DNA of 63,154 nt, counting the filler. It is 15 parts of 15 records of this genome, joined end to end, with 100 filler letters (N's around TTAATTAATTAA, not from the genome) between each part and the next. Parts side by side here need not be neighbours in the genome. Positions count along the whole stretch, not along the records: positions 8,232 to 14,644 come from SRR15195285_8010; 14 more parts are not named here. One strand, 5' to 3'. A program made the translations under genes and the position numbers. Shown here piece after piece: positions 8,014 through 27,001 of this stretch. How positions within the stretch are numbered: the stretch's first letter is position 1; the number at the start of each line of letters is the position of its first letter. The notes under the pieces were generated by a model. That model searched no databases and was not told where the DNA came from. It saw nothing but the letters and a program-made list of their open reading frames with translations.

Positions 8014-8231
8014 CGCCGCGACAGACCTGGGGGGAGCGACGGATCGATGCTCGGCGGTCGGCGCGCCGATACGCACCGCGGGTGGTCAAATAAAGTCGAA
8101 AGTCAAAGTGATGTTCGAAAGAAGTGGTTGANNNNNNNNNNNNNNNNNNNNNNNNNNNNNNNNNNNNNNNNNNNNTTAATTAATTAANNNNNNNNNNNNN
8201 NNNNNNNNNNNNNNNNNNNNNNNNNNNNNNN

Positions 8232-11200
8232 AGCCCGAGCCCGAGCCCGAGCCCGAGCCCCAAGCAAGCGCTACGAACGCTGCCGCAGAAGAAGCGGCGC
8301 GAGTTCGCCAAGAGCGCGACGAGAAGCTACGCCGACGTGTGGCCGAGCTGAACGCCGAGGCAGAGAAGAAGGAACAGCGACGGAAGAGCGCCGCTGCCGA
8401 GGACAAGGCCAAACAGCAGCAGGCAGCAACTCGTGCAGCCACGCAGCAAGAGAAAACGCGCTCATCAGCGCCGACACAGCGACGCGAGAAGCCAGCTCCC
8501 AAACCGACGGCAGCAGATCTCCCGATGGGCAAGGTCGCGTATGCGCTAGGTACCCAGCTGGACTCAGCCTCCACCGACCACAACACCACCCTCGAGACGA
8601 CACTGACAGATGGCTTGGCCTCTCAGGGTCAGCAGGGCGGTCCCGCGCAGCAGTTGAGGTTCATTGCACAGACCTATCGGGCGCTGGGCGCTGAGAAGCG
8701 AGCTGCGAAGCAGGCTGATGACTCTGTGCACACGGAGATGGCAGATACTTTTGAGCGTGCGCTCATCAACGCTCTTTCCGAAGTCCTTCGGGCCGCGCGT
8801 ACCGGCATCGACGATGCGTTAGTCAGCAATCTGAAATCGGACACAGCACTATCGCCGCAGCTACTTGGCGCTGCACTGGAGAGCCTGGGGAGCCGCTCTG
8901 AATCCGGCCTGCCTGATTTGGATGCAGCTTGGGCGGCAGTACAAGGCACATTTGGCCAGCTCTGGGCAGATATCCGCGGCCCAGTTGAAGGAGCTCTGTG
9001 CGAGAGGATGGCGGGGATCGATTCTCCCATGCCCAGCCTCTCCGCAATGGCTGCGCTGTTCTCAGCCCCAGTGGTGCCGCAGTCCATGTCAGCAAACATC
9101 GCCAATGCACCGTGGATACCCCAGCGGCGGCTTGACCCAATGCGTGGGCGGAAACCGACAGTGATGGGATGTGATCTTGAGCTGGTGTTCCTCGGGCCGC
9201 TGTTCGGTCTAGGAGTTGTTCCGGATGCGATACGAAAGCTGCACCGCAGCCAAGCCGCCTGGAGCGCTGGGAAAATCGGCGAGTTTTTCTTTCCGAACGG
9301 ATTTCGACGAAGGCAGGTTGAAATCGACGCAGATGTCGAAATGGCGCGCGACCAAGTGCAGCTTGTTCAGGACCAGCTTGTGCGCGTGACAAAGTCGCTT
9401 CTGCGAAAGGATCGTGGTAGTCGCGAGCATATGTTGGACTGGTTGCATCACGCTGTAGAGTGCAATGCGAACAAGGCCAAGGTCTACGCTGATCACGCCA
9501 ATGACTCGAGTGATAACTTCTCGTTCAACATTGCGTTTGTTCTGCTGCGTTTGTGTGAACCCTTCATGAGCGGCTCCAGTTCTAAGGTTGCGCCTACAAT
9601 CGAGTCAGAGTTCGCCGTGCGCTGCGATAGATATGTGGAGGACCCGGAGCATCAATGTAGTTATGAAACTGAGACGAAATTCGCGTGCGAGACGGGCGAG
9701 CTCGATGCATGGGTTGACAAGCGAAATCTGGCTCGTATCAAGCAGTTTGAAGCAGCGAAAAAGAAAGCAGCTGTAGAGCAGGCCAAGCAGAACGCGGACG
9801 TTGCCCATATGAACGGAGTGGTGCGTTCAGGCGAGACGACAGACGCGATGGCTAGTCCAAGCGACGAGTCAGACGAAGACGCAATGGACGCTTTGCTGCG
9901 AGAGGAAGTGCCGGAAGGACAGCCTGACGCCGCATCAGGAAAAGCTGCTGCGCCACCCAGGCAAGCCTTCAGCTTTGTCACAGAGATATTCTTCCTCACG
10001 GCCCGTGCCCTGCACCACGGTTTCATCCCGTCCATGAACGTTTCAGATCGGGGGTCGCAACATTCGGCGTCAACTTACTACAAATTGCTTCACGCAATGA
10101 ATCCGCTCGCCAAGATGCTGAACGGGATGCGCGGTGCGCGCCACCCAGAGCTGGAGGGCGCATATAGCCAGATGTTCGCTACCAAGCTGTGCTTTGATGC
10201 CATGATGTTGGACCCTCGATTCCTGGAACTTGGGCTGAAATTCTATTCGTTATGCTCACGATGGCTTACAAAATTGGCGTGCGGAATGGATGAGATGGAC
10301 GAAACAGAAGTGGATCTATCCAAGCTGGACTTGCCACTTAAGTTACCGGTGCCGATGGCCTTCGCAACTTTGCCAGAGTTCTTCGGGACAGATTGCTGCG
10401 AATACTTGCTGCTGCTAGCGGAGTTTAAGGGGAGTGTCCTTGTTAACGCGTCGGATGAGTTTGACCGAATTTTGTCTCTGCTTGTTGTGTTGTTGGAGTC
10501 ACCTGGCTATGTGCGGAATCCTCATTTGCGAATGAAGTTCGTAGCGGTGATCGCGCTGCTGATCCCACCTAAGGCTCCAAAGCGTGCATCCGAGGAAGAT
10601 CGTCCAGACTTCTCGCACATCTTCAATGTGAACGTGATCTCCAAGCGCTACCTTGCTCCGTCGTTGATCCGTCTGTACGTTGATATCGAGAACACGGGCT
10701 CCCACAACCAGTTTCACGAAAAGGTTGGTCCGCGGTACAATGTGTACTGCATTCTTGAACACTTGTGCGACCCAATTGGCTCAGCTGCCCGCGCTTCTGC
10801 TGACGGCACGACGATTGCCCACCCTCCCGACCCAGTGTACCGAACTAGTCTCTTCAGCTATTTGTCAGAGGGGTCAGAGATGGCGAAGAAGTTCATCTCG
10901 ATGCTGCTGGGCGACACGCAGCTGCACTTTGACGATGGACTACTCAAGCTGGCAGAAGCAAAGAAATTACAAGACGAGCAGGATTCTGGCGAGTGGGAAA
11001 GCCTGCCTGCTAGCACAAGCGGCCCTGGGGAGCCTCCATCGCAAGGATCAGTAGAAGAGAAGAAAAAGCAGCTCGAAGATGCAGAGAATCACGCGAGGCA
11101 TCTGCTGAACCAGACCTCAAAAACCATTCACTTCCTCGCTTATGTAACACTGGACTGTCCTGGGCCCTTCTTGGCCGGAATTTTCGTGCACCGTATCGCA

Positions 11201-12056
11201 CAAATGCTCAACTCTTTCATCGTCAAGTTGGCTGGTCGGAACATGGGAGCCTTCAAAGTACGGAATATGGACGATTTGGAGTTCAAACCGAAAGAATTGC
11301 TTGAAGAAGTCGCGTCCGTTTTTGTTCATCTGTTCCAAGGATCGGTGGCACAGCCAGTGCCAGAGGAAGAACCAGTGGCAACGAAAGGAGGGCCGACATC
11401 GCCGTTTGTCGCAGCAATGCTTACTATGGGCCAGTACGACGCCGATGTCTATCGCAAGGCGCTGCGGATTCTGACAAGTAAGCACCAACCATGCTGTCAG
11501 TGGTCAGTTTCTGTTCGTTGCAAGCGACTGAGCAGCGATGGATGTGTTGCGCTACAGCGAAAGGGTGCTCCGCGGCTGTGTCTACCGGGCTGGGAGAGCT
11601 CTTAGGCGCCATCGATGCGAAAGCGGCGGAGGAAGTTGCAGAAGATATTGACTTGGATGACTGCCCAGACGAGTTCCTTGTAAGTCGTTGTGCCTGTTTG
11701 CTCTCTACCGCAGTACCAGCCGGACGCTCAACCTTCCTTGTTGCTAGGATCCATTGATGGATACTCTGATGGAAGACCCTGTGAAGCTGCCATGTAAGCA
11801 CACCGCACGGCGTTGCATACTGGCAGCGTGCTATGCGTTTGGATTCGCGCCATGATATTCACACGCATGGGCGCAACGATCAGGTGGGACTGTCATTGAC
11901 CGTGTGACAATCGAGCGATCACTTCTTGACAATGAGATTAACCCTTTTTCTCGCGAGCCCATGACCGTGGATGATCTGGTGCCAGATGATGAATTGAAGC
12001 AACGCATACAGAAATGGTTAGAATGCCGCAAGTCCGGTGTGCCTTTCGAATCATGA
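8232..12056 (+). CDS. UFD2: Ubiquitin conjugation factor E4 (UFD2/UBE4-like) with C-terminal U-box; 5' truncated
   Basis: Ufd2 core motifs FSFVTEIFFLT, VRNPHLR, LYVDIENTGSHNQFHEK, YDADVY. The U-box CPDEFL|DPLMDTLMEDPVKLP|CGTVIDRVTIERSLLDNEINPFSREPM assembles across introns 11478-11557, 11680-11747 and 11794-11883. Confidence 0.93.
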
Positions 12057-12215
12057 GTTCAGTGCAGCCACCAGAATACATGTGTGTGTTGGATGCTTCT
12101 GAGGGCATAGTCTTTAATTTACGCCGGATTGCATGACACACACCGCCCTGACTGCTGACTCTTCACAGCTCGCAGCCAAGCCATTTATCTATTAGCACTT
12201 GATCTTGTTGTAGAA

Positions 12216-14644
12216 TCAGTCTTGAAGAAGGAATTTGTAGATGCGTTCAATCTGATCAGAGATGAAGAAATCATTGAACAGCCGCTGCGCTGCCACTGGA
12301 ATTTGGGGACCTGGGCCTGGCTGGATGCAAATCATCGTTGTGATCTTGGACGCTGTTCCTTTCCGCGCAGGCGCGATGATCAAGCCTGCACAGTACACCT
12401 CTCCCGACGCCACATTTTTCTTCTTCCTCCCTCTTGGCTTGATGGTTCCATCGTAAGATCCCGAGGCCGCCGCGTGAATGATGACGCCGTCTGTGTCGAT
12501 ACGCCGTGTGTGGGCGAGCACAAGTTCCGTAGTGGGGATTGGCGAGGGATGGTATGGGAACTTGAAGTCGTAAAGTGCTGCACGCATGCAATAGAGTCAG
12601 CGTTGCGCACCGTGAAACGATAGCAAAGACAAGAAGTACACGCGCGAAGCCACTTACAGTGAGTGATCCTAGCATCGCCCCCATCGATGGTCTTGACGAT
12701 CCGTAAGTCGCCTGCCAGTAGATTCCATTGTGTCAAAGTCGACGGCTCCCACAGGCGCCGATCGACCTCGGCAGGGGTGACACCATCGATCACTGTATAC
12801 CCTTTCACACAGAGCATATTCGGTTTATGAGGGAGTGGTGACGGCATCGTAAAGACTTTGACCTCGCATCCCTGTGAGCGAACATCTGAAGACTTGACAC
12901 CAACAGCCTCTGATTTGTGGAACAGCCAACCGTCTTTGTTCTTTGTCGTGACTAGGATGTTCTTCATCACGAAGTCTTTGGTAAGATCCATGGCGTCTGG
13001 CTCATGGAACACACATTTCCGACGCTGGCCGCGTTCTTTACGAGTGGCAACAGAGAGTGTTTGAACCCACTCGTGAAACTCACGACAATGGCCTGACTTC
13101 GATCGAATGACTAGCCGAAACAGTCCACGAGGTGACACCAAGCGCACGAGCTCTGGACCTTCTGCCGTATCAATGACCACCCTAGAGATATCTTCGCTCC
13201 CGAGCGAGGCCATTGTTTCTTCAAATGCCTTCCGCATGACCCGGTTCTTCACATCGTCACCTTGATTCACCCACCAACGAGTGAACTCGTGAAAGTCAAT
13301 TCCTCCAGAGCCATCGTCATCCATGGCCTCGAAAGCAATTTTGAGTTCTTTGTCCGTCAGCGTGCGTTCCATGGCTGCTTCAATGACTTTTTGCACCTCG
13401 TCCTGCTCCAGAGTTCCATTCCCGTCAGCGTCAAACGCTGTCCACAGGTCTTGCAGCAGCTTGGCCTGCTCTCCAAACAGCTCGCCGGGTTTTCGTTTGC
13501 CTCCTTGGTTGTCAAGCGAGAACAGTATATTTTCAATATCATCTGCAATCCAATGATGCTCCCCGCGGCCACCTTCTGCCTCAGCTTTAAGCACGGCGCG
13601 AACGCAGAGATTTCTGAACTTGAATGTGCTAGGAACCACGACCCCTGCTGCTGTCATAGTTCGATCCCAATAATCCACAAATTCTTTGAAGTCGACTTCA
13701 CCTGATCCATCTGCATCAATTTGATCCATAGCTCGTAGGAACTCTCTGTTCGACAGTGTCTTGCCCATCTCGACAAAAATGGCTCTTACTTCATCGTGAT
13801 CAAGCGTACCGGACCCATCTGCGTCAACTCGTTTCCAAACTCGCTGCAGCCGTTTGAGCTCCATCTTCTTGCCCAAGTCTTCTCCTTTGCGTCCAGTGTC
13901 AATGCGTCCACCGGCTGTGAGTTGCTGCCGAACCTTCGTCTTAGGTATCTTCTGCTGCTGTTTTCGGTATGCCGGTGGAGCTGGCCGTGTGCCGTTCCTG
14001 GAGCGGGGCTTCAGTGGCTGACGCGTCTCTTTTCTGTTGTGCGACTCGGGTCTCTGCAGCGCTGGACGTGCCGACATGACGCGACGCTGAGTAGCACGGT
14101 GCCTTTTTTCACGTGGAGGCTGGGGCTGGACATCTGCAGACCCAGCGCTGCCTGCAGAAGATGCTGACGAAGGGCGTGCGGATGCCGGGCGTGCGAACGC
14201 AAGTCGCGCCGAGTTCTGCGCCGCTCTCTTGGGGCCACGCTGCTGTGATTCGTCGTCCAGCTGCATGGTAGTCTTGACTACGGCGCCATTTTGAGTCCAA
14301 GGAGTTAGCATCGCATCGTGCTCGTTGCTGCCCGGCGCGCTCGCAGAGTTTGGCCGCGCATCACAGTCTTCCAGTTTTGCTGCCTGTGTTGCCACAGGCA
14401 TTGGTGGAAGGACCACACGACTCTGAATCTGGCGTTGTGCAAGAGTCCTTGCGCCTGCGCTGGCAGTGACAAGCGCCGACAATGTCGGCGGTGGTGCCAC
14501 GGTATGCTGCCATGCGGCAGCCATCTCTTCTCTTGCCAGCTGCATGCGAGAAGCCACTGCTTTGTCCTTGGGCACTACCATCGACTCTTCCCACTCGTCC
14601 TGCTGAGCCCCGTCCGTTTGCTGCTGCTGCTGCTGCTGCTGCTG
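12216..14644 (-). CDS. Multidomain protein: disordered N-terminus, EF-hand pair, Bro-N-like domain with an inserted second EF-hand pair, START domain (intron 12578-12657; 5' end open into polyQ at contig edge)
   Basis: EF loops DADGSGTLDHDE, DADGSGEVDFKE, DADGNGTLEQDE and DDDGSGGIDFHE. START-like segment GWLFHK…CEVKVF…KGYTVIDGVTPAEV…QWN…ITH|SLY…G..IAP…KITTMIC. Bro-N-like halves are described in the findings. Confidence 0.75.
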
Positions 14645-14744
14645 NNNNNNNNNNNNNNNNNNNNNNNNNNNNNNNNNNNNNNNNNNNNTTAATTAATTAA
14701 NNNNNNNNNNNNNNNNNNNNNNNNNNNNNNNNNNNNNNNNNNNN

Positions 14745-16658
14745 CTCGAAGCTGGTATTGAGTACGTGGTGCGAGTTGCGGTCCGCACCACACGTGGCGA
14801 CCACCACCAGAAGTCAGCGCTGGATTTCGCTGTGAGCGACGCCCGCACAATCGCATATCGTACAGCTGCGGCCACACATGCAGCAGATTGGGCAAGGTTC
14901 TGGAATAGGAGCAGCGTTGACCTCGGGCTGCGGCGAGGTAGCAAGTCACACTCGTTGGAGGGCTTCTACTACGGAGCACAGTACATGCTGAACTCCTTCT
15001 CGAAGAGCGAAGGTGGTGTGATTCCAGGCTTGCTCGGTCCGTGGAGTGCACAGGACCCGGTTGGATGGGCAGATGGAATTACCATGGACTACAACGCGGA
15101 GGCCAACTTTTACGGCAGCGCGAGCAGCAACCACCCGCAAAACATGCATCCTTACTTTCCGACGGTGAGCGCTGCAATCCCGATGGGTCGAGAGCGAGCA
15201 AGACTCCCAGACTGGAGCTTTGGTGGTCACGAGGCCGCCGTGCAAAACTTGTTCGATGATTTCAGTGCACAGCAGGAAGGCGTCACAACGGCATACACCG
15301 CCGTTGGCACCACTGGCGATCAGACAGAAGCGATGGGCTGCGCCTGCGCTGGAATGCAGGGCTATCCATGGTGTCGAACAGACATCCACAACCGCACCTG
15401 CCCGAAGGCTTTTGGAGGCTTTGAGGGTATCGAGTTTCCACTGCAACTAGGAGCGTTTGCAACGATGCATTGTTCACCGGATGGGGCGATGCGGAGCGTG
15501 GCAGCGATGGCGGCGGCACCTTACGTCGAATACTTCGAACACACGCAAAACATGGTATTTCTCAAGGAGGAAGCGTATCCTTTTGTGAAGGAAGTCGCAC
15601 TCTTTTATGCTAGCTACTTACGACTTGATCCCAACAGCGGCCGGTACGAAGTGCCACACGCTTGCGCCCAGGAATTCTGCGGCGAGCGACAGCTACCATC
15701 GGTGACAATTCCTGGCCCACCTGGCAGTCACGGCTGCCCGCAGCCACCACAGCGATCGCCGACAATCGACCTGGCATTCGCAGAGTACGTCTTCAAAAAG
15801 GCTGCTGCGTGGAGTGAGATTCTGGGTGTTGATGCTGACCGACGAGCGCAGTGGCAATCGATGGCAGGAAAGCTTGCCACGTATCCGAGGGCTCAGCATC
15901 ATGACTGCGAAATGTTGTTCCCATGGGCGGCAGCAAGCAACTGCACTGGCTGGTCTGAGGCCACGAATGCGGATACAAACACGAGTGCGGAGCTGCACGC
16001 CAATTACAATTGGCCCATAGCAAACTTTGCACCTATTCATCCGACGGGTCTCGTCTCCTTGTCAAGCGACAATGTGACAAAACTGCTCGCGAGGAACACC
16101 GCGTGGATGCTAGCGATGGATTCGAACTGGGCTCCTGTGAACGGCCTGTGCCTTGCGTGGCCGTCAGCAGCACGGATGGCAGACCGATTTGATACATACC
16201 CTTTCAATGCCTCTGTGTTGATGGACGCCTGGGAGAGCGCGCTCGCAGCACACATGCAACCAAACTTCTGGCCATCGCTCGGTGGTGGCGGGCTCGAACA
16301 AGCTGGCGCTACGCTGGCAGTCAACGAGCTGCTTTTCCAATCGTTTGAGGGTTTCCTGCGCTTTTTCCCTGGGTGGCCACTGGGCGAGCGAGCTTGTTTT
16401 ACGACGTTGAGAGGCGTTGGTGCTTTCTTGGTCTCGGGATGCGTAGACGAGCGTGGGGATATCACCGGCATTAGTGTCGTGTCGGAGGTAGGGGGAACCT
16501 GTGAGTTCGTGCGATTCTCGGATGCTGTGTCTGTGCGCAGTGATGATGGCAAGGAAGTGGCCGTCGAAAGCGTTGCCGGTGGGCGGCTGCGCTTCGCAAC
16601 CGTCGCTGGTGGGCACTACAGTCTGACCGCACGCAGTGATGCTCAAGTCAAGCAGTGA
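14745..16658 (+). CDS. Glycoside hydrolase of the GH95 (alpha-L-fucosidase/galactosidase)-like (alpha/alpha)6 type; 5' truncated
   Basis: HAADWARFWNRSSV, YYGAQYML, PGLLGPW, TMDYNAEANFY, FLKEEAYPFVKEVALFY, GGLEQAG..AVNELLFQS, LRFFPGWP, FTTLRGVGAFLVS match the GH95 layout. Confidence 0.75.
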   Translation, partial: LEAGIEYVVRVAVRTTRGDHHQKSALDFAVSDARTIAYRTAAATHAADWARFWNRSSVDLGLRRGSKSHSLEGFYYGAQYMLNSFSKSEGGVIPGLLGPWSAQDPVGWADGITMDYNAEANFYGSASSNHPQNMHPYFPTVSAAIPMGRERARLPDWSFGGHEAAVQNLFDDFSAQQEGVTTAYTAVGTTGDQTEAMGCACAGMQGYPWCRTDIHNRTCPKAFGGFEGIEFPLQLGAFATMHCSPDGAMRSVAAMAAAPYVEYFEHTQNMVFLKEEAYPFVKEVALFYASYLRLDPNSGRYEVPHACAQEFCGERQLPSVTIPGPPGSHGCPQPPQRSPTIDLAFAEYVFKKAAAWSEILGVDADRRAQWQSMAGKLATYPRAQHHDCEMLFPWAAASNCTGWSEATNADTNTSAELHANYNWPIANFAPIHPTGLVSLSSDNVTKLLARNTAWMLAMDSNWAPVNGLCLAWPSAARMADRFDTYPFNASVLMDAWESALAAHMQPNFWPSLGGGGLEQAGATLAVNELLFQSFEGFLRFFPGWPLGERACFTTLRGVGAFLVSGCVDERGDITGISVVSEVGGTCEFVRFSDAVSVRSDDGKEVAVESVAGGRLRFATVAGGHYSLTARSDAQVKQ

Positions 16659-21578: not shown

Positions 21579-22312
21579 CGCGGATAGCTACGAGAGAGAA
21601 GGACGCCCGGGGGTCAAAATTCCGACCGTCGCGCCGGCCGGCGCCATCGCCAGGCGCGCGCGCGCCACAGCAATTTAGTAAGTGTCGGTAAGGTCNNNNN
21701 NNNNNNNNNNNNNNNNNNNNNNNNNNNNNNNNNNNNNNNTTAATTAATTAANNNNNNNNNNNNNNNNNNNNNNNNNNNNNNNNNNNNNNNNNNNNTGTGA
21801 GTGAGTAAAATTCCCTGTCTTGGTCCTTTTCTCTAGCTCGATAGTGCCCTGCGCAAGTAGGGCGGTGAAGCGTCGTAAGACGCACCGTAACGCGCACGAT
21901 TTCGATGGTGCGTTCATCCGCCACTCGATGGGCTCGGAGGGCGGGGAGCTCGGACGGTGTCTGCCGTTCTACTACTTCTGAAATGCCCACAGCATACAAA
22001 TATACATATATTGCATACATTACATACAAAATTACATACAAATAAGGATCCAGATTTTTTCCGATTTATGGACCAAAAAGCCCGTAGGATCCTACGGGTA
22101 CTACCGGTAGTAGATCTAGCTAGATCAAGATTCTAAGTACGTAGACGGTACTGCAGGGCCGGTGTGGATAGCGGCAGTATTCAAAATACACTAATACAGT
22201 ACCGCTCGCTGAGCGTGAGGCGTGACCCCTCGGCGGCTGCTCTGGAGAGAGAGACGGCAGACGGCTACTCGAGGTGTACACTGAGGGCAGGAGGGGCAGG
22301 AGGGCAGCAGGG

Positions 22313-25300
22313 ATGGACTCCCTCCTTGCGATGGGCTTTTCACGCCACGACAGCGCCGGGGCACTCGCCGAGGCAGCCGACGACGTGCGCCGTGCGATCG
22401 ACATGCTCCTCGACGGATACGAGGCACCGCCGGCCCCCGCCACGGAGGAGCCCGCCGAGGAGGAGCCCGCGCGGCTTGCGGGCGGCGGGCCGCCGGAGGG
22501 CGACCCGGGGGCATCCCATCGACTCATCGTGGCGCTTGAGTCGACCGAGGGAGCCTGCCCAGAGCCGATGCTCCCGCGCGGGGGCGTCGCTTCGACCCTG
22601 TCCGTATCTGAGGGCGCCGAATTCAGGATGCCGGTTCCTGGCGGGGCAGCCACAGCCTCGTGGTCGATTGATGAGACGAACCGACGGCAGGTGGACGTGG
22701 CCGTTCTGTTCCTGCCAGAGGGCGCGCATCTCGCCGATCCGTCCCGCGTGGCTTACGTGCGCTACGTCAGCTGCTACGGCTCGTACAGCACGGACCAGCC
22801 TGGAACTCTGCTCCTGCGGCTCTCGAATCAGTTCAGCTGGCGCTCGTCCAAGACTGTAAACGTTCGGCTCAGTGTCTCTCCTGGTGCCGGCGCGTCGCCA
22901 GAGCAACAGGACTCGCAGGCCGCTATCCAAGATCTTGGGCTCAAGCTCACGGACGCCACGCAGGATGTGGTCCAGCTGAAGGCCACCAATGGAGAGCTCC
23001 AAGCGCGGCTGGCTTCCACGCCTCAAGCACCCGCGGATCTTCTTGCAGAGCTGCAGCAGCTTCGCGCACAAGTGGCATCGATACCCCATCAAGCAGCCGT
23101 ACCCATGGCAGCGCACTCCGGCACGGTCCACGAGCTACTGCAAGAACATGGGCTCACCGAGTTCGAAGAGAGACTGCTCGCGCTTGGTGCCACTTCCACT
23201 GTTCACCTCAGCCAGCTGGACCAGACCGATTTCAGTGCACTGGGCGTGACCGAGGCGCAGCGTGCGGCGTTCGAGAGCATGCTGCTCAGGTGTGAGCAAC
23301 CAGCAGTGATCGAAGACAGCCTTGAGCGCGTCTCGTCAGCTGCCGAGAAGCGTTCGCAACGTGTGGCAGAGGAGCTGCGTCGCCAACGTAGCAATGGGGT
23401 CAACCCCTCTGGGGCGGCAGCACAGATGGCACCTGACGATAGCGACATTCTTACTCGTGTCAATACGCTGCAGATCATGGCCAGTCGGCAAGATCCGCAG
23501 CCATCTGACGGTGAGCAAGACTGCAGCATCTGCATGGAGACGTTCGAGAGCTCGCAAGGTGTTAAATGCGGCGGAGACGACTCGCACTACGTCTGCCTGT
23601 CATGCCTCTGTCTCTACATCCAAAGTCAGTGCGAACCCGCCGCTGCGGGTGGTACCTATGAGATTGCGAAACGAAACGCCAACGGGGACACTTCGCAAGT
23701 CGGCGAGCTGCCTTGTCCAGTGTTCCTGATGGACGGCTGCGGGTGTGGCTGTATCGGAGGTGACGAGCCGTCGCTGATGATTAAGGTCGCTTCCCATCCA
23801 GCGTCGTTTCGAACGCTCAAATCACTCATCGGCGCCAGTCAGCGAGCTGCACTTGAGCTGGCTCGCGAAGAGCAAGCACAAGCGGCTGAAGCTGAGCGCA
23901 AGCGCAAAGCAGAACAGACTGCACTGCAAGCAGCTACCGAGCTAGTCGTTGAGGCCATGACGAAAGGTCAGGCTACCGACTGCCCGAAGTGCAACGCCAC
24001 GTTTCGAAAAGATGAAGCGTGCATGCATATGAAGTGCGAGATCTGCCGCACTGACTTCTGCTATGTCTGTGGGCAAGACACCACGAAATGTGTGCGTGGA
24101 AGAGACTGCGACAGGATTTCTTGCTACCTGGAGTCCAACCCCGGTTGGAACGGCTTTGCGCGCGACAGCGAAAGTGCTGGTGAAGGCGCACTGTACGAGT
24201 TCCAGCGCCGGAAAATTGCATTTATGGTCCGAGAGGCGAAAGCAAAGATACCTGCTGATATTTGGCAAAATATCATGACGGAAAATCCAGAGCTGTTTCA
24301 AGATGTTCTCAGGGGCCGTAGTATCACGTTGGAAGAGGTAGATGCTGCGGAGAGTCTCCCACAGTTTGGGGCACGCCACACCGGTCCACCTGGTCAACCA
24401 GACGAGACTGGTTTTGCTGCTGGTATGCGTGTGCGCCTGACTGAGGATGCAGCGGAGTTGGAGCGCTCAGCAGATGGTTTCGGCGGATGGAATCCGGCCA
24501 TGGCAGCCTGCTGTGGTAAGATTGGGGTAGTAGAACACACGAATGGCACATGGGTAAGTGTTGGCTTCGGCAGGCGTTCGTGGGCACTGAATCCTGCTGT
24601 ATTGACGAGAGTTGCCGACGATGCGGAGGCGGATGAGATGCCAGACGGCGATGACGACGAGGCCGATCTTCTCAGGATGCTCATGCGTGATCTTGGCGGC
24701 GGGCCTGCTGTGCCACGAGCACGGGGTCCAGTTCGTAGGCGACGACGCGCAGGTGACGGTGCAGCCTCGGGAGCAATCTCAGTTGGTGATCGCGTTGCGC
24801 TTCGACCAGGTGTCGAGCAGCGCGGACCTCTGGCGCACGGTCGCGTGGGCACACTGGTCGAGGACGATGGCTCTTCAGTGCCGTACAAGTGCGAGTTCGA
24901 AGGAGAAACGCACTGGTACACCGCAACGGATGTCGTCGCAGCTGACACTGCGGGTGCAGGCGCCGGCGGGGGGGCACTCGAGAGAGGAGACCGTGTTCGT
25001 GTTATCTCAGATAGAGATCGCGCCAGAGCGTTAGCTGATGGCTTCGGCGGCTGGAACGGCGATATGGCTGAATACTGTGGTACCGAGGGAACGGTTCAGG
25101 AGGTGAATCGATCGGGGTCAGTGCGGGTCCGGCACGAAGACGGCCGCATGTGGGCGTGGAACCCGGAAGCTCTGGAGTCTCTGGCAGGTAGCGGAGTGGC
25201 ACGTCGTCCCGCAACGGGTGACCGTGTCATACTGGCTCCTGGAGAATCGGAGGGCTGTCTGTCTGGCACAACCGTTGGGACCGTTGTGGTCGATGACGGC

Positions 25301-27001
25301 TCACGCGTGCCTTTTCAGGTGCGCGCCCCAGACGGTGCAACATACTGGTACCGCGCAGAACAAGTAGTCCTCGCCGAAGCAGCTGCCCCCGATCAACTCA
25401 GGGAAGGAGACTCAGTCACTGTGCTTCCATCAGTTGATCGGGTGCGTGAGCTCGCCGACGGCCACGGAGGCTGGGCGTCTTCCATGGCTGAATACTGTGG
25501 CCAAACTGGCATCGTCCGCAACATAGACAGCGATGGTGATGTATCCGTCAAGTTCCCAGACGGAAATTCGTGGACGTACAACCCTGCAGCTCTCGTAGGC
25601 GGTGGTGGCAGTCACGCAAAGCGACCAACAGTAGGCGACCACGTACGCATTCGTCGAGGCACAACCACACATGGACTGCAGGCTGGAGAAGTCTACGTGA
25701 TTCACAGAGACGATCATGACGCTAACCCATATCGACTCAGGAGCAACACTCCAGGTGATGAAGAGTCGTATGGATTTTTCGCAGAAGGTGACGTAGAGCT
25801 TGTGGAAGGAGCTAGGGCTGAAGAAGGCAGGCCGATAACGCATCATTACCTCCCCGTCGGCACTCGAGTCGTGCGTGGTCCAGACTGGGAGTGGGGCGAC
25901 CAAGATGGTGGCGCTGGCGGGACAGGCACGATTGTTGAGCACGAGTCTGACCGATGGACACAGGTGACTTGGGACCGCACTGGACGCACTGCGTCATACA
26001 AAAACGGCATGGACAGAAGACTTGACCTCCAAGAAGTGGGTGGCACGGCAGCTCCACGTGGCACAGCGTTCACTGTTAGTGGCAGTGGCAAGTCTCGATG
26101 CAATGGCCCATATCGCCAAGAGGGCTCCAACGACGGCAAACCGATGTACAAGCAGGTTGGGGGCAGCGGCCTCATTTATTTCTCATCGTTCTGGAAGCTG
26201 AACGACGAGACCAACACACATGGATGGTATTACAGTGTTCGAGGCAGCACTGGCGATGAACCCCCGACTGGACAGTGGACAACTCATGGGTACTCTGGAA
26301 GCGATGCAGATCCGCCTCCAACTGTGACGCGTGTCGAACAACAGGTGGGTGAGACGACCTCACAGCCTGATGGACATTGGCTCACCTGCCCAGGAAGCGG
26401 ACATCAAGCACACCCAATGGCCCGTGACGTGCGCGGGCACCATATGTGCGACATATGTCGTACTAGTGGCACACACTATCGCTGTCAGTCTGGCTGCGAC
26501 TACGATGTCTGCCAGTCGTGTGCTGACAGGGCCCGGAGGGACACCGGTAGCTATACAGGCCCCATTTTCCCAGGCGGTCGCCCTCACTCCCAACTGGCGA
26601 CTCTGTCGGATCCAAGCAGCTCGCCCATTCGAGTCCGCCACTCCGAGCATGGCGCAGGAGTTCTGATTGGATACAAATACGCGGGTGAACGTACTGGCGA
26701 CACCTCTGGTGGGTTATCGTCAGACGGTTACGTGCGCATCAAATTTGATAATGGTGGCCCCTTTGGATTGGCGGGTTTCAATGTTGATTCTCGAGAAGTT
26801 TGCTTTCTGGGTGGTGCTGCCATGCCTACGGGCGAATGGACGCCCACTCATTCCCGACACCAGCTGCGGAGGTACAGAGCAGCGAGTGTGAAGTGCAAAC
26901 GGTGCAGCATGTTCGGTCCGTCGACACAAACTGGAGACCAGGAGTGCGCGAACTGCGGTCTGTGCTCGACTTGCTGTGCGACCAACGGCTGCGAAAGTTG
27001 A
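22313..27001 (+). CDS. Large intronless E3 ubiquitin ligase: UBA, GOLD, coiled coil, SAM, RING1, RING2/Rcat, Mind bomb-type SH3-like repeats, MIB/HERC2, ZZ-like zinc finger
   Basis: UBA LLAMGFS…AIDMLL; GOLD LLLRLSNQFSWRSSKTV; SAM LQEHGL..FEERL…LGVT; RING CSICME…HYVCLSC…CP; RING2 CPKC…ACMHMKCEICRTDFCYVCG; MIB/HERC2 GTRVVRGPDWEWGDQDGG; CDIC…YRCQSGCDYDVCQSC. Confidence 0.85.
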   Translation: MDSLLAMGFSRHDSAGALAEAADDVRRAIDMLLDGYEAPPAPATEEPAEEEPARLAGGGPPEGDPGASHRLIVALESTEGACPEPMLPRGGVASTLSVSEGAEFRMPVPGGAATASWSIDETNRRQVDVAVLFLPEGAHLADPSRVAYVRYVSCYGSYSTDQPGTLLLRLSNQFSWRSSKTVNVRLSVSPGAGASPEQQDSQAAIQDLGLKLTDATQDVVQLKATNGELQARLASTPQAPADLLAELQQLRAQVASIPHQAAVPMAAHSGTVHELLQEHGLTEFEERLLALGATSTVHLSQLDQTDFSALGVTEAQRAAFESMLLRCEQPAVIEDSLERVSSAAEKRSQRVAEELRRQRSNGVNPSGAAAQMAPDDSDILTRVNTLQIMASRQDPQPSDGEQDCSICMETFESSQGVKCGGDDSHYVCLSCLCLYIQSQCEPAAAGGTYEIAKRNANGDTSQVGELPCPVFLMDGCGCGCIGGDEPSLMIKVASHPASFRTLKSLIGASQRAALELAREEQAQAAEAERKRKAEQTALQAATELVVEAMTKGQATDCPKCNATFRKDEACMHMKCEICRTDFCYVCGQDTTKCVRGRDCDRISCYLESNPGWNGFARDSESAGEGALYEFQRRKIAFMVREAKAKIPADIWQNIMTENPELFQDVLRGRSITLEEVDAAESLPQFGARHTGPPGQPDETGFAAGMRVRLTEDAAELERSADGFGGWNPAMAACCGKIGVVEHTNGTWVSVGFGRRSWALNPAVLTRVADDAEADEMPDGDDDEADLLRMLMRDLGGGPAVPRARGPVRRRRRAGDGAASGAISVGDRVALRPGVEQRGPLAHGRVGTLVEDDGSSVPYKCEFEGETHWYTATDVVAADTAGAGAGGGALERGDRVRVISDRDRARALADGFGGWNGDMAEYCGTEGTVQEVNRSGSVRVRHEDGRMWAWNPEALESLAGSGVARRPATGDRVILAPGESEGCLSGTTVGTVVVDDGSRVPFQVRAPDGATYWYRAEQVVLAEAAAPDQLREGDSVTVLPSVDRVRELADGHGGWASSMAEYCGQTGIVRNIDSDGDVSVKFPDGNSWTYNPAALVGGGGSHAKRPTVGDHVRIRRGTTTHGLQAGEVYVIHRDDHDANPYRLRSNTPGDEESYGFFAEGDVELVEGARAEEGRPITHHYLPVGTRVVRGPDWEWGDQDGGAGGTGTIVEHESDRWTQVTWDRTGRTASYKNGMDRRLDLQEVGGTAAPRGTAFTVSGSGKSRCNGPYRQEGSNDGKPMYKQVGGSGLIYFSSFWKLNDETNTHGWYYSVRGSTGDEPPTGQWTTHGYSGSDADPPPTVTRVEQQVGETTSQPDGHWLTCPGSGHQAHPMARDVRGHHMCDICRTSGTHYRCQSGCDYDVCQSCADRARRDTGSYTGPIFPGGRPHSQLATLSDPSSSPIRVRHSEHGAGVLIGYKYAGERTGDTSGGLSSDGYVRIKFDNGGPFGLAGFNVDSREVCFLGGAAMPTGEWTPTHSRHQLRRYRAASVKCKRCSMFGPSTQTGDQECANCGLCSTCCATNGCES

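Follow-up and report, generated by a model that had tools for sequence, protein, structure and literature searches.

A marine picoeukaryote gene predicted to encode a Bro-N domain split by a pair of EF-hands and followed by a divergent START domain

Results

Domain organization of the encoded protein

The DNA considered here is a window of 63,154 nucleotides, which denotes the whole stretch that was analysed, and our subject is a gene on the minus strand (positions 12216-14644) of one contig within it (8232-14644, record SRR15195285_8010), where the gene is truncated at its 5' end by the contig end. We are highly confident that the gene is genuine, that it belongs to a marine picoeukaryote and is both transcribed and spliced, and that its product consists of a disordered N-terminus, a pair of EF-hands, a Bro-N domain that is broken after its first helix by a second pair of EF-hands, and a divergent START domain. 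All features of the gene given below lie on the minus strand. Translation shows an N-terminal region of low complexity (13853-14644) that is rich in alanine, serine and proline and contains clusters of basic residues. The region is weakly conserved in alignment A2, and Pfam finds no family before residue 259. The appearance of the basic clusters suggests putative nuclear-localization signals.

Scanning exon 1 with Pfam revealed four EF-hands, two of which lie upstream of the Bro-N domain (residues 265-326) and two between its halves (residues 397-457), as an earlier note made from the letters of this DNA had proposed. The first pair (13667-13852) is recognized as EF-hand_6 (residues 265-294) followed by EF-hand_1 (residues 301-326). 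The second pair (13274-13456; EF-hand_7, residues 397-457) sits inside an 89-residue insert (13247-13513, columns 606-709 of alignment A2). EF-hand_7 (PF13499) passes its cut-off of 30 bits with 81.1 bits (E-value, E, 7.4e-23), and EF-hand_1 (PF00036) matches four stretches with 76.4 bits. The columns of the EF loops are invariant across nine sequences, and Ca2+ binding is predicted. When the segments that contain the two pairs were compared (13646-13873 against 13247-13513), they showed 44% identity across 66 residues, flanks included (E 3e-18), which suggests that the inserted pair is probably an internal duplication of the upstream pair.

The insert is bordered by the two parts of the Bro-N domain. 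The N-terminal half (N-half; 13514-13645, residues 334-377) contains the motifs F-x-F, V-R and W-[IV]-A-x-D-[IV] and carries an extra loop of six residues, and the C-terminal half (C-half; 13016-13246, residues 467-543) contains the motifs G-L-F-x-L-V-x-R-S-K and F-x-x-W-V. Both stretches had been picked out in the earlier note as resembling Bro-N, and translation together with the alignment columns places them on the minus strand at the positions given there. According to the alignment, the insert site directly follows the first Bro-N helix, at a point where canonical Bro-N domains vary in length. The domain is thus not a contiguous run of about 96-100 residues, because the 89-residue insert separates its halves. 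Downstream, the START-like region begins with a first part at the end of exon 1 (12658-12982, start boundary approximate), which was located by profile and ESM Atlas searches, and continues after an 80-nucleotide intron with a second part in exon 2 (12219-12577), which was located through the spliced coding sequence and the Pfam START match of the relative P0007. The earlier note makes no mention of this intron within START.

Gene structure and transcription

The minus strand holds a long open frame (12380-14692), from which the true coding sequence departs at a GTAAGT donor. The gene comprises exon 1 (12658-14644), a phase 1 GT..AG intron of 80 nucleotides (12578-12657) that is indicated by the sequence, by RNA contigs and by spliced homologs, exon 2 (12219-12577) and a stop codon (12216-12218). 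Three spliced homologs (P0006, P0007 and P0008) continue exactly as the predicted splice would have it, and the joined exons give 782 codons free of stops. Database models P0002-P0005, which include the EukProt model identical to the window protein, instead read through the intron (12380-12657), with the result that their C-terminus is wrong and unconserved and the second half of the START domain is missing.

The contig end (14611-14644) falls within a CAG/CTG repeat that encodes a poly-glutamine run of the protein, and the repeat is probably the reason for the break in the assembly at this point. The EukProt model P0002 is identical to the window protein and extends 61 residues further at the N-terminus. 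Using tblastn, residues 62-815 of this model were placed on 14644-12383 with 100% identity, which indicates that the first 61 codons are missing from the gene because the contig stops inside the CAG repeat.

We also examined expression, using RNA contigs of four marine metatranscriptome runs. In two of the four runs, which come from two different studies, an RNA contig joins position 12577 straight to position 12658. The skipped segment has the ends CT..AC on the plus strand, which correspond to GT..AG on the strand of the gene, and the joint indicates that the gene is transcribed and spliced. Unbroken RNA contigs cross both borders of the EF-hand insert (13083-13374 and 13464-13614), and none of the contigs listed for the four runs shows a joint that removes the insert. 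Two segments (13375-13463 and 14418-14640) are left uncovered by the RNA contigs of these runs, which is no evidence of their absence from transcripts.

Relatives and their distribution

A word-indexed search returned nine proteins at E<=0.001 among 5113 candidates. Eight of them are family members with 52-100% identity, and the one outsider, which matched through its EF-hands, is 'orange CaMBI 300', a synthetic construct of the calmodulin-insertion type. We also conducted an exhaustive profile search against 1.84 billion representative proteins with a query that runs from the C-half to the end of the START domain (alignment A4), which yielded 93 matches at E<=1e-3. Pfam analysis of 91 of these proteins (P0012-P0102) identified Bro-N in 46, START in 12 and EF-hands in 8. 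More divergent family members, namely P0019, P0026, P0062 and P0065 together with several fragments, emerged from the same search.

Every relative that spans the region keeps the order of EF-hand pair, N-half, EF-hand pair and C-half, down to about 35% identity, and no relative with an unsplit Bro-N domain was seen among those found. This retention of the split suggests that the insert is an old and constrained feature rather than damage. One protein, P0102, is of bacterial or phage type and matched as far as profile position 180, and it was considered as an unsplit Bro-N protein with a START domain; its downstream part lacks START-like features, which indicates a spurious extension, and the candidate was rejected. 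Only two family records name an organism, both of them EukProt entries for 'Picozoa sp.' (COSAG02 and COSAG06), and the others come from marine assemblies.

Homology of the split domain to Bro-N

The profile matches of the C-half identify it as Bro-N. On exon 1, Pfam Bro-N matches residues 493-527 at profile positions 56-90 of 96 (E 0.061, 14.4 bits), and the C-half scanned alone gives 17 bits (E 0.009). Seven of the eight relatives match Pfam Bro-N at E<=10, and the eighth is truncated before the C-half. Phage proteins give a similar picture. Among PHROG families, the C-half of the window protein matches five to seven of the anti-repressor kind (E 1e-4 to 5e-3). Such families also head the PHROG matches of the window segment (E 4.8e-4 and weaker), and the relatives match them with E down to 4.5e-7. 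A tblastn search against phage genomes gave 200 matches, all of them weak; among the 30 listed, 16 are annotated as antirepressor or BRO, 1 was shown by Pfam to contain Bro-N, 9 are hypothetical proteins and 4 belong to unannotated records. The Bro-N matches of the profile search fall at profile positions of approximately 5-70 and at residues of approximately 40-100 of the matched proteins, which corresponds to the latter half of a Bro-N domain in its usual N-terminal place, and the nearest canonical matches that have names are called 'prophage antirepressor-like protein'. When a Bro-N model was run over the 973 open reading frames of the window, only the frame under study matched (E 3.2e-12). 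A homolog search that started from a Rhizobium phage BRO protein returned only that protein itself.

The N-half was examined with two reference sets. The first comprised 21 phage domains, mostly from streptococcal phages, and was superseded by the second. With the first set, HMMER detected only the C-half, which HHalign matched with a probability of 97.5%, and the result for the N-half is suggestive at best. The second set comprised 55 Bro-N domains with less than 70% mutual identity, which were taken mostly from the matches of the exhaustive search. Because these matches had been picked through the C-half only, they are unbiased for the N-half. HHalign aligned the N-half with template positions 4-35 of the 55-domain reference in a colinear manner, with F-x-F, V-R and W-x-A-x-D-V in register. 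The match strengthened as the query deepened, from P 1.1e-5 for the window sequence alone to P 1.6e-7 with eight close relatives and P 8.6e-10 (score 46.5) with ten relatives that include P0019 and P0026. When the columns of the ten-relative query were shuffled 300 times, none of the shuffles reached this score, and the maximum was 18.8.

The earlier note had proposed deleting the EF-hand insert in silico as a check. With the insert columns removed, the joined halves match the 55-domain reference over 95 columns, from template position 4 to position 98 of 104, with a probability of 99.4% (E 3.8e-21, score 111), which indicates that the joined halves are homologous to Bro-N along its whole length. 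When 12 family members were aligned by MAFFT with 16 canonical Bro-N proteins, the alignment bridged the insert by itself. Across these 28 sequences, the arginine of V-R and a leucine are invariant, and an aspartate, two glycines and a tryptophan are nearly so. The core of Bro-N (V-R, D-V/I, the leucine of the first helix, G, G-L-Y/F and W-V) is thus retained. Conservation within the protein peaks in the N-half, whose 44 residues include 26 columns that are invariant among nine sequences, which suggests that the Bro-N surface is under constraint. Split PH domains are natural split domains. A PH or split-PH reading of the region was considered as well; no PH family matches the exon or either half in Pfam at E<=10, the joined halves match Bro-N, and this reading was rejected. 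Taken together, these comparisons place the Bro-N likeness of both stretches above chance, through Pfam and PHROG for the C-half and through HHalign and shuffling for the N-half.

The START region

The C-terminal portion of approximately 220 residues is, by profile homology, a divergent START domain. START proteins match the family profile at positions of approximately 131-293, and all nine of the START-region matches that were checked carry Pfam START with 47-319 bits, so that the profile search establishes significant homology to bona fide START domains. Pfam START gave 16.2 bits for P0012. In the ESM Atlas, 29 of 30 matches fall in START sets with a score of 0.96, which we treat as a lead only. 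The START domain that the earlier note placed after Bro-N is real but divergent, and it was recognized through relatives and profile searches rather than through the Pfam scan of the window's own sequence. Among the START relatives is a protein that combines bHLH with START (P0098/P0151), whose cluster includes a record from Prymnesium parvum; here, too, a protist protein joins START to a DNA-binding domain.

Structure comparison and two-chain prediction

Searches of PDB sequences with the family profile returned calmodulins only, and the C-half with START gave only a chance match to a fucosidase (E 0.16). We also used two-chain prediction, for which the mark applied is reached by 51 of 78 solved complexes and by 2 of 108 mismatched pairs. 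For the halves of P0007 the score was 0.48, against 0.01 for the best of three controls, which gives weak support to their association; with a score of 0.60 or lower, the mark was reached by only 5 of the 78 solved complexes and by all 4 of the passing mismatches. In this prediction the predicted local distance difference test score (pLDDT) of the partner did not fall below 66, and agreement between the runs was 75% of contacts or more. Homology, rather than a model, suggests that the two halves may form one fold.

Surrounding sequence

Some 15 short contigs make up the window, and between them stand 14 identical spacers, each consisting of 44 N + TTAATTAATTAA + 44 N (for example, 14645-14744 and 8132-8231). 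The presence of these 14 spacers indicates concatenated contigs, and genes on either side of a spacer belong to separate pieces and are therefore no genomic neighbours. On the contig of the studied gene (8232-14644), the only other gene encodes a Ufd2-type ubiquitin chain elongation factor or ligase (8234-11602 and on to about 12056, plus strand; Ufd2P_core E 6.4e-120). It is convergent with the studied gene, and the 3' ends of the two are only about 160 nucleotides apart. Its U-box-like ending (11856-12056) apparently lies in another frame, which implies an intron in the Ufd2 gene. Two other contigs carry plus-strand genes. One (22226-26998) holds a large open reading frame with Mind-bomb SH3 repeats, MIB_HERC2 and IBR, which make up a Mind-bomb-like E3 ligase, and the other (14745-16655) holds an open reading frame with a catalytic domain of glycoside hydrolase family 95 (E 8.3e-18).

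Discussion

We consider the best overall explanation to be that the split Bro-N, EF-hand and START architecture works as a signal-integrating regulator, and we hold this explanation as a whole to be evenly poised between right and wrong. The mechanism proposed within it, in which Ca2+ and lipid would control the activity of Bro-N, is plausible and falls somewhat short of an even chance. According to this proposal, the two Bro-N halves would pack as one fold and hold the EF-hand pair in a loop that is of variable length in ordinary Bro-N domains. Binding of Ca2+ would open the EF-hand pair and shift the geometry at the insertion point, which would toggle the binding activity of Bro-N. The activity that is switched would most likely be DNA binding, as reported for BRO proteins, and passages in two papers describe BRO-N as a DNA-binding domain (PMC12721341, PMC8096241). 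The START pocket could add a lipid input, as in the plant HD-ZIP START factors, in which a change of conformation that depends on the ligand gives competence for DNA binding. For HD-ZIPIII, binding of phospholipids by START is reported to make the factor competent for DNA binding (PMC10226595). A narrower proposal is that these proteins are lineage-specific transcription regulators of the Picozoa-labelled lineage, in which a Bro-N domain of phage or virus type may have been made into an allosteric switch that is gated by Ca2+ through the duplicated EF-hand pair and by lipid through START; we regard this as tentative and rather unlikely to hold in full.

Several results weigh against this explanation. 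First, the profile evidence has gaps. The window sequence falls under the curated Pfam cut-off for Bro-N (PF02498; 14.4 against 25.6 bits), as does its best relative, P0007 (23.5 against 25.6 bits, E 8.4e-5). The N-half alone has no match in Pfam or PHROG and no usable ESM Atlas result, HMMER gives it only 2.2 bits against the 55-domain model, and HHalign against the 21-domain reference gives P 0.0034, with 2 of 150 column shuffles equalling its score. Pfam START (PF01852, cut-off 22 bits) matches neither exon of the window at E<=10, and the sole START match among the eight relatives at that threshold, P0007 (residues 333-459), reaches 21.7 bits. Second, the structure predictions are of low confidence. 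AlphaFold2 modelled the split domain of the window protein from nine sequences with a mean pLDDT of 59.9, with the halves mostly under 60, and P0007 from eight sequences with a mean pLDDT of 40.6, with the START part under 40, because the family alignment is shallow. A Foldseek search of BFVD with the low-confidence first model gave no matches at E<=0.001 and weak EF-hand matches only, and is uninformative for the Bro-N part. A four-sequence Bro-N profile detected no solved Bro-N structure in PDB at E<=0.01, so that the place which the insert takes in the fold is deduced from the alignment only. Finally, many phage Bro-N proteins are annotated as anti-repressors, and DNA binding need not be their activity.

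This last point leads to the main rival explanation, which we consider less probable though still a serious contender. It accepts the same architecture and proposes that the Bro-N module binds a protein, in the way that phage anti-repressors bind repressors, so that Ca2+ and lipid would control the binding of a partner. The best PHROG families and the named relatives, which are annotated as anti-repressor or prophage antirepressor-like, favour this possibility. However, these annotations are names rather than assays, the description of Bro-N in the two papers cited above is that of a DNA-binding domain, and no candidate partner was seen, the only other gene on the contig being the convergent Ufd2 gene.

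An unlikely alternative is that the protein is a cytoplasmic, Ca2+-regulated protein for lipid transfer or sensing, in which START and the EF-hands are active and the split Bro-N domain is a scaffold without its original binding. START domains and EF-hands are both common in non-nuclear lipid-signalling proteins, and the Pfam score of Bro-N under its cut-off indicates a divergent domain. In contrast, no part of the protein is more conserved than the Bro-N halves, as the invariant columns of the N-half illustrate, and residues common with canonical Bro-N domains have been retained, which argues for a retained surface function.

We consider it very improbable that only the C-half derives from Bro-N and that the N-half, either without any relation to it or with a different fold such as that of a split PH domain, resembles Bro-N by chance. 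The failure of the N-half to match on its own and its modest P value with the narrow reference would fit such a reading. However, with the reference chosen through the C-half, the colinear match of the N-half (P 1.6e-7 to 8.6e-10) was equalled by none of the 300 shuffles, the joined halves outscore the C-half alone with the 21-domain reference (69.1 against 62.3), and the N-halves of P0019, P0026 and P0062 are still closer to the canonical pattern. The least probable reading of all, that a chimeric assembly or a wrong gene model made an intron or a misjoin look like an EF-hand insert, might draw on the concatenation of short contigs in the window and on the several database models that read through a real intron, but can be set aside since the split region lies well within one contig in a single open frame, recurs as conserved protein sequence, down to about 35% identity, in independent assemblies of several origins, and is covered at both insert boundaries by RNA contigs without joints.

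With respect to the signal-integrating regulator, the earlier note had envisaged a domesticated viral domain that responds to Ca2+ and lipid. The split-domain structure on which that idea was built is upheld by HHalign. The viral origin stays at the level of inference: the Bro-N module may have come from a virus, the analysis brought up no donor, and none of the 250 pattern matches to the family among IMG/VR viral contigs was confirmed as a relative.

The family can be compared with several known systems. With Bro-N proteins (PF02498), which include baculovirus BRO proteins, proteins of giant viruses and polinton-like viruses, and anti-repressors of phages and prophages, it shares profile homology over the full length and a common set of core residues. 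It differs from them in the 89-residue interruption by an EF-hand pair, in being a spliced cellular gene of a protist, in the combination with EF-hands and START, and in its Pfam score under the cut-off. Bro-N is known to be fused to many other domains, as one paper states in part of its text (PMC12721341). Plant HD-ZIP III/IV proteins similarly place a DNA-binding-type domain before START, with a homeodomain and leucine zipper where the family has Bro-N, and the family would add a Ca2+ input. No homeodomain appears in the Pfam scans of the window protein and its relatives, so the family would be a functional analogue of HD-ZIP III/IV rather than a member. Fungal SBF/APSES regulators, which derive from viral KilA-N according to a passage in one paper (PMC4862756), offer a precedent for the co-option of a virus-type DNA-binding domain as a eukaryotic regulator, whereas KilA-N is a different Pfam family that lacks both the EF-hand insert and START, and no transfer event is shown for the family described here. 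Engineered calmodulin-insertion sensors likewise carry a Ca2+ module in a loop of a host domain, whose activity Ca2+ can change. Those sensors are man-made and contain a whole calmodulin with its target peptide, in contrast to the natural, single EF-hand pair of the family.

The earlier note did not recognize the architecture among characterized proteins, and the literature agrees. In the main texts of open-access papers and preprints, neither Bro-N with START nor Bro-N with an EF-hand is described, and the searches brought up only unrelated work. The open-access literature on the Bro-N domain and eukaryotes deals with viruses, endogenous viral elements and bacteria, and this architecture is undescribed there. 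Each of the three domain families is itself known. The novelty lies in a Bro-N domain split by an EF-hand pair, in its combination with START, and in its occurrence in a spliced cellular gene family.

In DNA viruses and phages, Bro-N ranks with the most widespread domains, yet understanding of it is poor. If the narrower proposal is true, the family would provide the first Bro-N regulator of a cellular eukaryote, and in nature it would match the engineered Ca2+ sensors that are built by domain insertion. It would offer a clear natural case of regulation through an inserted domain and, outside plants, a second and independent instance of START paired with a DNA-binding-type domain. A conserved, expressed, cellular Bro-N domain is also a tractable handle on the function of the domain, and its built-in Ca2+ module suggests that the activity of Bro-N may be switchable in vitro. 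Picozoa are known almost only from single-cell genomes, and for this lineage the protein would be the first candidate signalling regulator.

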